Positions 184 to 30,786 of a stretch of DNA of 64,000 nucleotides are shown here, piece by piece. Position numbers and translations under genes: made by a program. Position 1 is the stretch's first letter. Each line of letters begins with the position of its first letter. The notes beneath the pieces are model-generated. The model ran no database searches. It was not told where the DNA came from and was given only the letters and a program-made list of their open reading frames with translations. The stretch lies in assembly GCF_055900595.2 (NCBI RefSeq), contig NZ_CM148325.1, one strand, 5' to 3'.

Positions 184-201
184 GTTATGTTATAACATAA
201 C
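184..201. promoter_or_regulatory. Zur-box-like perfect palindrome GTTATGTTATAACATAAC upstream of ykgM
   Basis: 18-bp perfect inverted repeat 12 bp upstream of the ykgM start; ykgM-ykgO is a known Zur-repressed operon. Confidence 0.6.
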
Positions 202-212
202 AGGTAAAAATG

Positions 213-476
213 ATGAAACCCAATATCCATCCTGAGTATCGTACTGTGGTGTTCCATGACACCAGTGTTGATGAGTACTTTAAAATCGGCTCGACTATCA
301 AAACAGACCGTGAGATTGAGCTGGATGGCGTAACGTATCCGTACGTGACAATTGATGTCTCTTCGAAATCGCACCCGTTCTATACAGGGAAGCTGAGAAC
401 AGTGGCATCAGAAGGAAATGTTGCACGGTTCACCCAACGTTTTGGTCGTTTTGTTAGCACGAAAAAGGGGGCGTGA
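213..476 (+). CDS. ykgM: 50S ribosomal protein L31 type B (zinc-independent paralog)
   Basis: 87-aa translation [16 protein letters not shown]... matches YkgM/RpmE2; second in-frame ATG chosen. Confidence 0.9.
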
Positions 477-616
477 TGAAAGTCCTTAACTCTCTGCGTA
501 CCGCAAAAGAACGCCATCCAGACTGTCAGATTGTGAAGCGAAAAGGACGGCTGTATGTGATTTGTAAATCTAATCCACGTTTTAAGGCCGTTCAGGGGCG
601 TAAGAAAAAGCGTTGA
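476..616 (+). CDS. ykgO: 50S ribosomal protein L36 paralog
   Basis: 46-aa [34 protein letters not shown]..., ATGA overlap with ykgM stop. Confidence 0.85.
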
Positions 617-1134
617 TTCATAATTCGCCGGATTAACGATATTTGTCTGATTAATAATCAGACCGGATTAATGTTGGTGTGTTTATAACACCAACATTAA
701 TTTCCTGGGGATATATTCTTCCTGTTCATTTAAAGCCAACTGCCTGACGTTTCTCTCCGAATATTCCATTATATTAATGTTGATTTGTTGACCAGCTTCG
801 CCCCTGTATGCTGGTATCAACTCTCTTTTAGACTGAACAAGCCACTCCGCCCCCTCCCTTTGCGGAGCAGCCTGCATTTACACTCAAACTGTTAAGATGA
901 TAAATGTGGTAAATCTGTTGGTACTAACATAAAAACGTTTACGCCACAGGAACAGCCTGATCCACCAGTAACCCCATCGCCGACGTTCGAGTGCCAGTTA
1001 GAGTAACGCGCACAGATGACTGCACGCAGTGCCCTGTCAAAGAGGCCATCGTTCCTGTGACAGCTGGCAGCCTTCGTTTAACTTCACTTAATTTGGCTCT
1101 TGGGGGGCTTACCGAACAGGGTAATGACTCCAAC

Positions 1135-1638
1135 TTATTGATAGTGTTTTATGTTCAGATAATGCCCGATGACTTTGTCATGCAGCTCCACCGATTTTGA
1201 GAACGACAGCGACTTCCGTCCCAGCCGTGCCAGGTGCTGCCTCAGATTCAGGTTATGCCGCTCAATTCGCTGCGTATATCGCTTGCTGATTACGTGCAGC
1301 TTTCCCTTCAGGCGGGATTCATACAGCGGCCAGCCATCCGTCATCCATATCACCACGTCAAAGGGTGACAGCAGGCTCATAAGACGCCCCAGCGTCGCCA
1401 TAGTGCGTTCACCGAATACGTGCGCAACAACCGTCTTCCGGAGCCTGTCATACGCGTAAAACAGCCAGCGCTGGCGCGATTTAGCCCCGACATAGCCCCA
1501 CTGTTCGTCCATTTCCGCGCAGACGATGACGTCACTGCCCGGCTGTATGCGCGAGGTTACCGACTGCGGCCTGAGTTTTTTAAGTGACGTAAAATCGTGT
1601 TGAGGCCAACGCCCATAATGCGGGCAGTTGCCCGGCAT
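1135..1638 (-). CDS. insB: IS1 InsB frame (transposase made as InsAB' by frameshifting)
   Basis: 167-aa ORF overlapping insA 3' end in -1 frame, typical IS1 organisation. Confidence 0.85.
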
Positions 1639-1832
1639 CCAACGCCATTCATGGCCATATCAATGATTTTCTGGTGCGTACCGGGTTGAGAAGCGGTGTA
1701 AGTGAACTGCAGTTGCCATGTTTTACGGCAGTGAGAGCAGAGATAGCGCTGATGTCCGGCGGTGCTTTTGCCGTTACGCACCACCCCGTCAGTAGCTGAA
1801 CAGGAGGGACAGCTGATAGAAACAGAAGCCAC
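1557..1832 (-). CDS. insA: IS1 protein InsA
   Basis: 91-aa translation [37 protein letters not shown]... Confidence 0.9.
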
Positions 1833-1949
1833 TGGAGCACCTCAAAAACACCATCATACACTAAATCAGTAAGTTGGCAGCATCACCAAAACCTGCAAAA
1901 ACTCTTAGATCTTTTACAGAGCGAAGATGGATTCAGTAGCAATAAGAAG

Positions 1950-4949
1950 TTGATTGGCAAATTTCGTTTGTTACCGAAAAAATTAACCACAAAGAAAAAA
2001 CATGAATCCCAAAATGGACACGTCCACTTTTCTAATCCTAAACGAGCAGCCGACCATTTATTTAATAATTTTGATCTGATACCAGAGTTTCGTATTATTG
2101 GTGACTTCCCGGTTGATAGTCACATTATCTCTGCACTATGGATTAACATGGTCGGGCATAAATTTGATGCCAGCTTAGATAACTGTTGCTATGGCGCGCG
2201 GCTAAAGCGTATTCGTAATGATGAATTATTTAGCAATGAGCAGGATAATCCATTCCATATCAGTGCAGTGGGTTCTTTTAGCCCCTACTTCCAGCCCTAC
2301 CAAAAATGGCGTGGTGATGGCTTAAAAGCTATACGTGACGAGTTGGAAAAAGATCGTGACATTATCGCCGCCTCACTGGATTTAAAAAGTTACTATCATT
2401 TTATTGATCCACTGGCTATAACCTCTGATGATCTCTATAACACACTAAACATAAAACTGACTGAGGATGAAAAAGCGTTTACTGCACAGTTAGCAGTATT
2501 CTTAAAGCACTGGTCTGACGGCGCAGCGGCATTTGGAAAGAAAATAGCGTACAAAACACCTGTTATTAATGGTGGTCTGGTCATTGGATTAACAGCCAGT
2601 CGGATCATTTCAAATATATTGCTACACCATTGGGATAAATTAGTCATTGAAAAACTATCACCAATTCACTACGGTCGTTATGTCGATGATATGTTCCTTG
2701 TAATACGCGATACAGGGAAAATTACTAATAATCACGAATTTATGTTATTGCTGCAAGATAGGCTTGGCAATGATTGCGTTTATTTGAAAAACGAGCAAAA
2801 ACAAATATGGCAAATACAGCAGGGCGAGCATTTCCAGGGTAAGACCACCATCCAGTTACAATCCGATAAGCAAAAACTTTTCGTGCTTCAAGGGAGGGCT
2901 GGAATAGACCTGCTCGACAGTATCGAAAAGGAGATCTACGAGCTTTCTAGTGAACACCGCTTGATGCCTTCACCGGATCAACTGGAACACTCAACCGCAG
3001 CTAAAGTCCTTTCCGCTGCCGGTAGTGTAGGTGAAAATGCCGATACTCTGCGCCGTGCAGATGGATTAACCATTCGTCGTTTGGGCTGGTCACTGCAATT
3101 ACGCTACGTTGAAACACTGGCACGAGATCTGCCTCCAAGTGAATGGAAAGAACAGCGGGAAGAGTTTTATCAGTTTGCCTACAACCATATTCTTAGGGCT
3201 GATAATCTATTTGCACATTTTAGTTATCTGCCAAGGCTGCTTGGCTTTGCTATCAGTATGAATGAATGGCAGCACGCGGAAACAATTGTACTTAAAGCTT
3301 ACGAATCCATCAACCTGTTGGCATCGGTGATTACTTCAGGTAAGGAAGTGAATATAAATGGTTGCAAAACTCGAGCAGTAAATGATCTTTGGCGCTGTAT
3401 AAAAGGCACATTAAGCTGGCTATTTGTTGATGCAGCGACACGATATTACAGTCCTGACAGATTATTTCTTGATAAACGTTCAAAGAAAGAAGAGTGCCTT
3501 GCGGATACATTTTTTAATCATATTTCACAAAGTCTGACGAATCTAAAGGATTTACTGGATCTTCGCTTTGATTCAGCAGATTTTTATTTAAAAGCGCCAT
3601 TGGTAGCTCGAGCTGATTTAGCAAAGGAACCTTATAAACAGATCGTAAAGAGTCAGTCGGCAGAAAAACTTGTTAATCAGCGTGATAGTAAAAAAGAAGT
3701 TAAAATACTGAAATTAATGAGCGACTCATCGCTTATTGATATTGACGTTATTAAGCTATTTTTGAAATCAACCAAGAATACCCGACTGGAAAAAGTGGCT
3801 AAAGGAAATCGTAAGAACGAAAGTTACCTACCTTACATTTTCCCTACACGTCCTTTAACACCCGCTGAAATATCAGAACTGGCCCCCGAATGTGTTGGAT
3901 TACCCTCCACATCCGACAAAAAACCAGATGAGAGACCGTCCACCATTTGGGCAAAATATACTCAAGCATTACGCGGAGTATGGATCAAACCGACGTTGCT
4001 AGCATCGGAGCAGGACTCAGATGAAGCGACAAAAAAAGCTCGGCCTAAGAAATTCATTCATATTGGCACAGACAGGAAACATAAAGTTGTCGTTGCGCTA
4101 ACCAGCATTAAAACAGAGGAGGACGACTGGGCTAAAATGGCCTGCAATAAATCTAACTTGTCCCGTTCAAGGTACCAGCGGATTTCTGAACTGGTTAATG
4201 CAACATTGAAACTATCTCCTAAACCTGATTATGTTTTATTCCCTGAGCTTTCAATCCCGTTACGCTGGGTTAACAGTATTGCTGATCGTTTGAGTTCGGC
4301 GGGTATCAGTCTAATTGCGGGAACAGAATACCGCCACTTAGACGATAATCAACTGAAGAGTGAGGCCGTACTTGTCCTTTCAGATAACAGACTCGGCTAT
4401 CCAGCGAGTGTCAAAATATGGCAACCCAAGCTGGAACCCGCCGTAGGTGAAGATGAGGCATTATTTTCAACTTATGGTAAGTCTTGGGACTCGACACTTA
4501 ATGTTAAACAACGTAAGCCGGTATATATTCATCATGGCGTCAATTTTGGCGTTATGATTTGCTCTGAACTCCAGAATAGTAAAGCGAGGATCCGTTTTCA
4601 GGGCGCACTCGATGCATTAATGGTATTGAGCTGGAATAAAGATCTAGATACGTTTGCATCGTTGATTGAATCAGCAGCGCTGGATATTCATGCCTATACT
4701 ATTTTAGTGAATAACCGAAAATACGGCGATAGTCGCGTACGTTCCCCGGCAAAAGAACCCTTTATGCGTGATATTGCTCGTGTGAAGGGCGGTGATAATG
4801 ACTTTGTGGTCGCTGCAACGCTGGATATCGACTCGTTAAGGGCATTTCAGAGCAGGGCAAAACGCTGGCCTAAAGGCGGCGATAAATTCAAACCGTTACC
4901 TGAAGGATTCCAGTTGGCAAAGAACCGCAAAAAGCTACCGCCAAAATAA
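1950..4949 (+). CDS. Reverse transcriptase fused to C-terminal nitrilase/C-N hydrolase domain (DRT type 1 / UG1-like); 5' end probably truncated by IS1
   Basis: RT motif A ASLDLKSYYHFID and motif C RYVDDMFLV; C-terminal FPELS...GVMICSELQ (Glu and Cys of nitrilase triad); first start is TTG and frame stays open back to IS1 edge. Confidence 0.7.
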   Translation: MIGKFRLLPKKLTTKKKHESQNGHVHFSNPKRAADHLFNNFDLIPEFRIIGDFPVDSHIISALWINMVGHKFDASLDNCCYGARLKRIRNDELFSNEQDNPFHISAVGSFSPYFQPYQKWRGDGLKAIRDELEKDRDIIAASLDLKSYYHFIDPLAITSDDLYNTLNIKLTEDEKAFTAQLAVFLKHWSDGAAAFGKKIAYKTPVINGGLVIGLTASRIISNILLHHWDKLVIEKLSPIHYGRYVDDMFLVIRDTGKITNNHEFMLLLQDRLGNDCVYLKNEQKQIWQIQQGEHFQGKTTIQLQSDKQKLFVLQGRAGIDLLDSIEKEIYELSSEHRLMPSPDQLEHSTAAKVLSAAGSVGENADTLRRADGLTIRRLGWSLQLRYVETLARDLPPSEWKEQREEFYQFAYNHILRADNLFAHFSYLPRLLGFAISMNEWQHAETIVLKAYESINLLASVITSGKEVNINGCKTRAVNDLWRCIKGTLSWLFVDAATRYYSPDRLFLDKRSKKEECLADTFFNHISQSLTNLKDLLDLRFDSADFYLKAPLVARADLAKEPYKQIVKSQSAEKLVNQRDSKKEVKILKLMSDSSLIDIDVIKLFLKSTKNTRLEKVAKGNRKNESYLPYIFPTRPLTPAEISELAPECVGLPSTSDKKPDERPSTIWAKYTQALRGVWIKPTLLASEQDSDEATKKARPKKFIHIGTDRKHKVVVALTSIKTEEDDWAKMACNKSNLSRSRYQRISELVNATLKLSPKPDYVLFPELSIPLRWVNSIADRLSSAGISLIAGTEYRHLDDNQLKSEAVLVLSDNRLGYPASVKIWQPKLEPAVGEDEALFSTYGKSWDSTLNVKQRKPVYIHHGVNFGVMICSELQNSKARIRFQGALDALMVLSWNKDLDTFASLIESAALDIHAYTILVNNRKYGDSRVRSPAKEPFMRDIARVKGGDNDFVVAATLDIDSLRAFQSRAKRWPKGGDKFKPLPEGFQLAKNRKKLPPK

Positions 4950-10329: not shown

Positions 10330-10590
10330 ATCAGGCAAAGGCCAGATTCAGAACGTCGTGATAACCACCAGCACAACATGAGATGTCATGTAACGCGATT
10401 TATCACGTCAGATACATGTGATTGGTGTACCCGCATAAAACATTGTCATAGCGCGTCCTGTGCGCATATACGCCGATAATCAACACATCACCACCACTCT
10501 GTCTCATGTAGAGAACACTTTTATGGTATCCCCCGCCATCGTGTGCGTACTGGTCGGACGCAGTTGCAAAAAATTTTGCAACTGATACCC

Positions 10591-30748: not shown

Positions 30749-30786
30749 TGGAGATTGCCGGATGCGGCGCATCCGGCACTTTTCAC

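Follow-up and report, generated by a model that had tools for sequence, protein, structure and literature searches.

Genes at the ykgMO locus

The window (the whole stretch of DNA analysed here, 64,000 nucleotides) starts with the ykgM-ykgO operon of Escherichia coli, whose products are zinc-independent paralogues of the ribosomal proteins L31 and L36. The ykgM product matches the NCBIfam model NF002462 ('type B 50S ribosomal protein L31', E=4e-36) and the ykgO product the model NF002021 (E=3e-26), both exceeding the curated cut-off. A perfect Zur-box core (TGTTATAACATAACA) was located by pattern search at 188-202, upstream of ykgM. The coordinates of the genes, of the two palindromes downstream of ykgO (H1 and H2) and of further features of this region are collected in Table 1.

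In genomes of the K-12 type a gene for a protein of 75 aa, ykgL, is annotated on the opposite strand; it converges on ykgO and its end lies 34 nt from the ykgO stop codon. The region had been treated as intergenic in the preliminary description, but the K-12 annotation assigns it to the 3' end of ykgL, and both palindromes fall within the last 17 codons of this gene (...RKINVGVINTPTLIRSDY*). The comparison with K-12 showed that the region is shared and differs by one nucleotide in the T-run just after H2 (TTTT in K-12, TTT in the window). It is through this 1-nt deletion at 701-703 that the ykgL frame is lost in the window, and in NZ_CP098223, where the DNA of this region is identical, ykgL is annotated as 'frameshifted'. 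The window allele is rare, as only 8-9 of about 5,060 matching records are at least 99% identical to it.

Table 1 Genes, secondary structures and transcript end at the ykgMO locus (positions in the window)
Feature	Position	Strand	Description	Basis
ykgM	213-476	+	type B L31 paralogue, first gene of the Zur-repressed ykgMO operon	ORF and RefSeq annotation of identical DNA
ykgO	476-616	+	type B L36 paralogue; stop codon TGA at 614-616	ORF and RefSeq annotation
ykgL	651-877	-	pseudogene in the window; 75-aa K-12 frame broken, 64-aa ORF at 683-877 left	ORF list and K-12 comparison
H0	611-619/630-638	+ (RNA only)	9-bp helix including the ykgO stop codon	MFE and centroid folds of 610-720 (+)
H1	645-653/655-663	both	perfect 9-bp arms with 1-nt centre, GTCTGATTA-A-TAATCAGAC	repeat search and folding
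H2	667-680/688-701	both	perfect 14-bp arms ATTAATGTTGGTGT / ACACCAACATTAAT, 7-nt loop; proposed shared terminator/3'-end hairpin	
Direct repeat	628-636 and 663-671	+	CCGGATTAA, brackets H1	repeat search
Weak U-tract	696-703	+ (ykgMO-sense RNA)	AUUAAUUU past the GC core; TTT at 701-703, TTTT in K-12	
Term-seq 3' end equivalent	665	-	ykgL-strand RNA ends ...ACACCAACAUUAAUCC-3'	measured in K-12, not this strain

Geometry and folding of the palindromes

The two palindromes reported after the ykgO stop codon were found again at 645-663 (GTCTGATTAATAATCAGAC) and 670-698 (AATGTTGGTGTGTTTATAACACCAACATT), beginning 29 and 54 nt past the stop. Both fold as RNA on both strands, so that their description as hairpin-capable holds. 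The second stem had been given as 11 bp; the repeat search extends the arms of H2 to a perfect 14 bp. A GC-containing core (673-680/688-695) is flanked in H2 by the self-complementary ATTAAT, and with G-C pairs at only 4 of its 14 positions the stem is AT-rich. Folding yields -18.7 kcal/mol on the + strand and -16.7 kcal/mol on the - strand, with z about -6, and none of 200 shuffles was as good. H2 is the sole perfect inverted repeat with arms of at least 12 bp and a loop of at most 10 nt in the 64-kb window, for which a Markov simulation predicts 0.02 repeats of at least 12 bp and 0.00 of at least 14 bp. H2 is not a chance feature.

H1 forms an 8-bp stem with a 3-nt loop as RNA and folds with -8.1 and -8.7 kcal/mol on the two strands (z -3 to -3.7). 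A third helix, H0, occurs only in the ykgMO-sense RNA because it contains 2-3 G.U pairs. It is also present in the fold of the K-12 allele, and a shorter alternative helix is formed instead by the O157 allele. At two of the H0 pairs the E. coli alleles swap U.G for U-A and C-G for U.G, changes which remain paired on the + strand and would give C.A on the - strand. H0 is a tentative helix, and its left arm is coding.

The direct repeat that brackets H1 is degenerate in other alleles and probably reflects nothing but the arms of H0 (right) and H2 (left). A palindrome of REP-like appearance (TGCCGGATGCGGCGCATCCGGCA) is located elsewhere in the window, at 30756-30778.

Conservation in Escherichia and in other genera

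Of 5,426 complete E. coli genomes, about 5,056 (~93%) carry a 111-nt region comprising the palindromes as a single copy, with a median of 1 place per genome and a maximum of 2, and H2 is matched at one place in the window. A dispersed palindromic repeat or mobile element was rejected for the region on these grounds. Beyond E. coli, H2 is the best-conserved non-coding block downstream of ykgO. Its identity amounts to 71% in Escherichia albertii and 80% in the cryptic-clade genome L010, compared to 48-64% between the ykgO stop and H2 and 52-68% in the 60 nt past H2.

In E. coli, E. albertii and L010 alike, the hairpin forms in RNA of either strand. In E. albertii it has a 15-bp stem despite differences at 10 of the 35 positions, and the five changes within the stem break no pair (P ~0.012 under random substitution). 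At one pair the K-12-type alleles have U-A and the B2 and O157 alleles U.G; E. albertii has C-G there and L010 a broken A.G. A G-C pair of E. coli is A-U in E. albertii, and the G/A that closes the loop has given way to A-U in four cases (B2, O157, L010 and E. albertii). A covariation count over nine sequences, seven of them distinct, found 92% of the cells paired and two pairs with double changes. This number of double changes was reached in 96 of 500 shuffles, and with seven distinct sequences the covariation is not significant; it may be called suggestive of a conserved H2 helix, not a proof. Over the three helices, six of seven one-sided changes still allow a G.U pair in + strand RNA and would give C.A in that of the - strand (binomial P ~0.06), which hints that the ykgMO-sense RNA may be the selected form.

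H1 is kept in E. coli with changes at its terminal pair, lost in E. albertii and re-formed with another right arm in L010. Judged by these alleles, H1 is specific to E. coli, and no role is assigned to it. A search of the E. coli collection with the sequences of L009 and L010 revealed no new alleles among the top matches.

For the comparison with other genera, 80 ykgM loci were taken from species-representative genomes with YkgM as query. Where ykgO is followed by intergenic space, a canonical GC-rich hairpin with 6-7 T is found 10-60 nt past the stop codon, for example in Salmonella, Serratia, Citrobacter freundii, Franconibacter and Mangrovibacter. At the remaining loci the sequence after the ykgO stop resembles the end of a converging gene, as judged by eye from the conserved downstream sequences. 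The corresponding site in Escherichia is occupied by H2, the tail of which is much weaker.

State of ykgL across lineages

According to a six-frame comparison the ykgL ORF is intact in K-12 and S51. It is frameshifted in FDAARGOS_1256 and MS20654, at two sites other than that of the window, shortened to 63 aa in O157, deprived of its ATG in STEC17-183 and altered by an insertion in L010; in B2 strains it is broken or altered as well. In E. albertii stop codons interrupt the sequence and the ORF is absent. The YkgL protein matched no family among the Pfam and NCBIfam models. H2, on the other hand, was found in every genome of this comparison, with intact and broken frames alike. As the hairpin remains even with the ykgL frame broken, shifted or lost, it is not explained by constraint on coding. 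As annotated, ykgL is probably not a normal protein-coding gene, because its frame decays across lineages and the stable K-12 transcript described below ends inside the CDS, the hairpin being conserved instead.

Terminator prediction

The stem-loop of an intrinsic terminator is usually GC-rich and has 5-14 bp and a loop of 3-8 nt, and H2 agrees with this in the lengths of its stem and loop, with only 4 G-C pairs. A U-tract of about 7-9 nt, mostly U and directly after the stem, is absent from H2. On the + strand five of the first eight nucleotides past the GC core are T. The statement that no T-run follows H2 is roughly right: the stem ends with a T, after which TT-CC comes in the window and TTT-CC in K-12. 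The T-run after H2 is absent from E. albertii and L010. The tail was scored by a U-tract score in the style of d'Aubenton-Carafa and TransTermHP, in an implementation of our own; H2 reaches 2.7-3.7, and the canonical terminators after ykgO in Salmonella and Serratia score 5.2-5.6.

A scan with a consensus terminator detected nothing at the palindromes, neither in the window nor in K-12, and the sole terminator-like match on the + strand of K-12 (2163-2178 of the K-12 locus L001, corresponding to about 862-877 of the window) is at chance level. The scan of positions 1-1300 against Rfam 15 with permissive E-values returned chance matches only (E >=1.2, 13-22 bits compared to gathering thresholds of 40-95).

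Transcript ends and expression

In the Term-seq data of K-12 MG1655 (Adams et al. 2021, eLife; PMC7815308) a curated 3' end is listed at 312325 (+). It appears on two of the three growth-condition sheets, is classed as 'internal ykgL, antisense ykgO' and has a small peak of about 750-865 reads (PMC7815308). The sequence column of this list comprises 61 nt with the 3' end at position 51, which was checked on SgrS and other entries, and the coordinate was transferred to the window over 213 nt from the ykgL start via the K-12 locus L001 and the alignment A1. The equivalent position is 14 nt within the ykgL CDS as annotated; it lies 2 nt past the 14-bp stem of H2 and 8 nt past its GC core. Intrinsic terminators release the RNA 7-9 nt past the stem and independently of Rho; on the ykgL strand of K-12 these distances are 8 nt from the GC core and 2 nt from the full stem. 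With a Rho score of 0.91 ('No') the end is insensitive to the Rho inhibitor BCM, and its intrinsic-terminator score of 2.35 stays under the cut-off of 3.0 (PMC7815308). Downstream of it by about 140 nt, at 312466 (+) on the ykgL strand and antisense to ykgO/ykgM, a significant Rho-dependent region is reported (PMC7815308).

No 3' end of the ykgMO strand is listed at the locus in the same K-12 Term-seq data (PMC7815308), which is to be expected since Zur represses the operon in the media used. The ykgMO/ykgL locus has no entry in the TERMITe supplements, and no experiment on a ykgO terminator was found in the papers on Zur/L31p and rpmE autoregulation. A terminator is drawn after ykgO, untested there, by Aseev (2020), and a survey of 2025 lists ykgL-ykgO among the convergent 'excludons' of MG1655, i.e. 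pairs with overlapping transcription.

In RNA-seq of zinc-starved E. coli Nissle the most induced genes are ykgM, ykgO and ykgL, with log2FC values of 9.7, 9.5 and 9.3, respectively. The ykgL counts go up about 600-fold along with ykgMO and the read density drops about 5-fold from ykgO to ykgL (ratio 0.20), both in a data set whose strandedness is not stated. A ykgMO 3' UTR ending at H2 would overlap 0.23 of ykgL. The drop in density fits termination near H2 without proving it, and the rise of the ykgL counts together with ykgMO makes some read-through possible.

A proposed shared terminator and 3'-end hairpin

With moderate confidence we favour the view that the ykgMO and ykgL transcripts, which converge, share H2 as a bidirectional terminator of a weak, non-canonical type and as a 3'-end hairpin. 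H2 (667-701) would work as an RNA hairpin and not as a DNA site, and would sit where two transcription units overlap, that of the + strand being the Zur-repressed ykgM-ykgO operon and that of the - strand the ykgL transcript. Whichever side it came from, a polymerase would transcribe H2 and pause or terminate a few nucleotides later; the RNA set free would bear the 14-bp stem at its 3' end and may thereby be shielded from 3'-exonucleases. The ykgMO transcripts may extend to about 701-705 as an mRNA of some 0.5 kb, with H1 (645-663) and H0 (611-638) as additional stem-loops of their 3' UTR. H1 lies in this 3' UTR and beyond the mapped end of the ykgL-strand RNA. As the T-run is 1 nt shorter in the window, termination on the + strand should be slightly leakier than in K-12.

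The hairpin itself, the conservation of its structure independently of the ykgL frame and the BCM-insensitive 3' end of the ykgL strand in K-12 are established. That ykgMO itself terminates at H2 is inferred. The preliminary description had offered a terminator as one possibility. This part stands for H2, the structure of which is conserved in Escherichia and which has a K-12 3' end 2 nt past its stem, with the qualification that this end belongs to the ykgL strand. As to its form, the terminator would be bidirectional, non-canonical and weak by sequence, and H1, not conserved outside E. coli, is assigned no function. A region neither conserved nor associated with termination would have spoken against any such role; conservation was found and a 3' end is mapped, but on the ykgL strand.

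The nearest competitor is a reading in which H2 acts only after transcription. Polymerases would read through the hairpin and stop later, with Rho or otherwise, and 3'-to-5' exonucleases would then trim the RNA back to the stem, whose sole role would be that of a protector; the sharp 3' end would arise with no termination at H2. Exonucleolytic trimming back to a hairpin yields defined 3' ends of Rho-terminated transcripts. In favour of this reading are the Rho-dependent region at 312466 (+) on the ykgL strand (PMC7815308) and the distance of just 2 nt between the mapped end and the foot of the full stem. Dar and Sorek (2018; PMC6061677) deal with defined 3' ends of Rho-terminated transcripts that are associated with stem-loops. 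The hairpin is kept in E. albertii and L010 without a U-tract, coverage by DirectRNA-seq past the end is not below that before it (35 vs 95 reads), and the listing of ykgL-ykgO as an excludon fits as well. However, the 3' end itself is not Rho-dependent (0.91) and lies exactly 8 nt past the GC core, as is canonical when a hairpin drives release, and the E. coli + strand has a U-rich tail. The protector differs from the terminator solely in when the end is made. We consider it unlikely, though to be taken seriously.

Other explanations of the palindromes

If one or both palindromes were DNA operators, a second Zur site, an H-NS nucleation site or a site for EcpR would come into question. Both palindromes are perfect and AT-rich, and H1 with its 19 bp and odd centre has the size of an operator. 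H2 shares AATGTT...AACATT with what we take to be the flanks of the Zur box, and the neighbouring ecp region is under H-NS control. The Zur-box core TGTTAT-N3-ATAACA, allowing up to three mismatches, matches at 188-202 and 183-197 upstream of ykgM and nowhere in 640-705. While the true box at 188-202 is perfect, neither palindrome comes within three mismatches of the pattern, and a Zur box at H2 was rejected because the pattern finds the ykgM box and neither palindrome. The change of 10 of the 35 H2 positions in E. albertii with retention of pairing is the signature of a structure and not of a sequence-specific site. Likewise, the one-sided changes break the symmetry of the DNA but keep G.U pairing, and H1 is not conserved outside E. 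coli. The second possibility of the preliminary description, a protein-binding site, was thus not upheld, as there is no match to the Zur-box core and the substitutions keep base pairing instead of sequence. Operators are improbable.

The palindromes could also be without any function of their own and represent ykgL coding sequence or chance in AT-rich DNA. Their position inside the annotated ykgL CDS of K-12 would agree with this, as would the covariation that falls short of significance. A close inverted repeat of 14 bp is, however, expected about zero times per 64 kb, and in the window, O157, STEC17-183, E. albertii and B2 strains H2 persists in spite of a broken or absent ykgL. No Pfam or NCBIfam family includes YkgL, and the mapped RNA end lies 14 nt inside the CDS. 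We regard this explanation as quite improbable.

A more far-reaching idea concerns the ykgMO 3' UTR as a whole (about 85 nt, 617-703, with three stem-loops, the last being the conserved H2). It could be a stable RNA, produced solely when Zur repression is lifted, which serves as a 3' UTR-derived riboregulator specific to zinc starvation, or the antisense arm of a ykgMO/ykgL excludon silencing transcription that comes from the side of ykgL and ecp; both are highly speculative. The one-sided substitutions favour pairing of the ykgMO-sense RNA and the region is induced about 600-fold with ykgMO. The 3' UTR shows no Hfq-type U-tail, and neither a known target nor a match in the literature was found for it. 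We know of no zinc-responsive regulatory RNA in E. coli.

Finally, it is hardly credible that H1 and its flanks are the scar of a small mobile element or of a local duplication, with the 9-bp repeats as target-site duplication: CCGGATTAA does bracket a 26-bp segment holding H1, a 6-nt indel relative to L010 lies inside H1 and the end of an IS903B abuts the H1 spot in one strain, but the region is single-copy (median 1 place in E. coli genomes), other alleles carry the repeats in degenerate form, the arms of H0 and H2 account for them, and there is no likeness to the IS1 or IS903 ends that occur nearby.

Significance for annotation

The importance of the proposed shared terminator and 3'-end hairpin is mostly one of annotation: it bears on where ykgMO ends, on the doubtful standing of ykgL and on the apparent induction of 'ykgL' by zinc starvation. 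The promoter of ykgMO is widely used as a Zur- or calprotectin-responsive biosensor, and the operon now gains a likely 3' boundary. The appearance of 'ykgL' as a top zinc-starvation-induced gene would most simply be due to the ykgMO 3' UTR or to read-through on the opposite strand. Should H2 prove to be a bidirectional terminator of the collision type, its partner, fully switchable by zinc, could make it a convenient natural test case for that model.

Comparison with known systems

H2 is a previously undescribed but ordinary case of a known gene-boundary element, and four types of element invite comparison. REP and BIME sequences are similar to H2 in that it is palindromic, lies in a 3' UTR between convergent genes and could stabilise mRNA. 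They differ in that H2 is single-copy, AT-rich and without the GC-rich REP consensus. With the canonical ykgO terminators of Salmonella, Serratia and Citrobacter freundii H2 has its position and a stem-loop with a T-containing tail in common. Unlike them it has an AT-rich stem (4 G-C pairs in 14) and the tail AUUAAUUU(U)CC instead of 6-7 U.

Stem-loops defining the 3' ends of Rho-terminated transcripts have been dealt with by Dar and Sorek (2018; PMC6061677). H2 is like these stem-loops in having a sharp adjoining 3' end and a Rho-dependent region further downstream on the same strand, and unlike them in that the end at H2 itself was scored as not Rho-dependent.

In the favoured view H2 matches the class of the overlapping bidirectional terminators between convergent gene pairs. 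Such terminators were reportedly found in E. coli by Ju, Li and Liu in 2019 with SEnd-seq. For convergent E. coli pairs, bidirectional terminators have been described which depend on a stem-loop and are unlike both intrinsic and Rho terminators (Wang et al. 2022, preprint, 10.1101/2022.10.23.513370). At H2 one of the two 3' ends is measured and the partner ykgL is a dubious gene, in which respects it is unlike the described cases; moreover, as ykgMO is normally silent, collision-driven termination would rarely apply. A bidirectional terminator would give uniform 3' ends of the two transcripts, one on either side of the hairpin, and thereby overlapping termini; of these, the - strand end mapped in K-12 corresponds to position 665 of the window. 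Like these terminators H2 lies between converging units, ykgMO on the + and ykgL on the - strand, with the stem-loop in their overlap, and owing to its symmetry the hairpin forms in both transcripts. Its measured 3' end is, as in the described elements, insensitive to Rho and below the cut-off for intrinsic terminators.

The Zur operator upstream of ykgM

A pattern search revealed a perfect match to the core palindrome of the Zur box and a second copy with one mismatch (183-197) which overlaps the first. Both lie immediately 5' of ykgM, and the element (183-202) overlaps or follows a promoter-like site at 151-179. It is the Zur operator to be expected for the operon.

Features of the ykgMO/ykgL region and of further repeats; coordinates refer to the window unless a locus is named
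Feature	Coordinates	Strand	Remarks
Zur-box core palindrome TGTTATAACATAACA	188-202		perfect core match; pattern search
9-bp direct repeat CCGGATTAA	628-636 and 663-671		flanks the small palindrome on both sides
ykgL pseudogene	651-877	(-)	1-nt deletion in T-run 701-703
IS1 copy	~1120-1900		InsA and InsB ORFs, both (-)
InsB ORF	1135-1638	(-)	
InsA ORF	1557-1832	(-)	
999-aa ORF	1950-4949	(+)	PADLOC RT_UG5-nitrilase match
Inverted repeat CAGTTGCAAAAAATTTTGCAACTG	10561-10584		11-bp arms
Inverted repeat TGCCGGATGCGGCGCATCCGGCA	30756-30778		11-bp arms
Region of the IS903B end, strain MMC-J-0020	L006 (NZ_CM128549.1) 500-660		equivalent to window ~659

Repeats and insertion elements

The 9-bp direct repeat around the small palindrome downstream of ykgO is degenerate in other alleles. 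In all probability it merely results from the arms of the neighbouring helices and does not represent a target-site duplication; a looser repeat of 14 nt is also present (623-636/641-654). In the whole 64-kb window the next-longest perfect close inverted repeats after the large hairpin have arms of 11 bp, and one of them, TGCCGGATGCGGCGCATCCGGCA, looks REP-like.

The match to the spacer usually found between ykgL and ecpR in other E. coli ends at 1119, and near 1121 the terminal repeat of IS1 was recognised by eye. Adjoining this element, in the place where ecpR normally comes after ykgL, is an ORF matching over its full length the PADLOC model RT_UG5-nitrilase (PDLC03780, E=8e-288), whereas a Pfam search of the same ORF gave no match. 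Its product combines a reverse transcriptase of the defence-associated kind with a nitrilase-like domain in one fusion protein. In strain MMC-J-0020 ykgMO and everything upstream are replaced by IS903B, the end of which falls inside the small palindrome; the large hairpin and the ykgL side are kept.

Transcription from the ykgL side and the status of ykgL

In MG1655 a significant region of Rho-dependent termination was reported at 312466 (+), antisense to the ykgO/ykgM junction (Adams et al. 2021, PMC7815308), which corresponds to ~524 (-) in the window. Any transcription that arrives from the ykgL side and gets past the hairpin is thus apparently halted by Rho within ykgMO. In K-12 an RNA 3' end was mapped 14 nt inside the annotated ykgL CDS (Adams et al. 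2021, PMC7815308). In the window ykgL is a pseudogene because the T-run that follows the large hairpin has lost one nucleotide. ORF comparison showed ykgL to be repeatedly frameshifted, truncated or devoid of a start codon across E. coli lineages, and in E. albertii the ORF is absent; ykgL may not be a genuine protein-coding gene.
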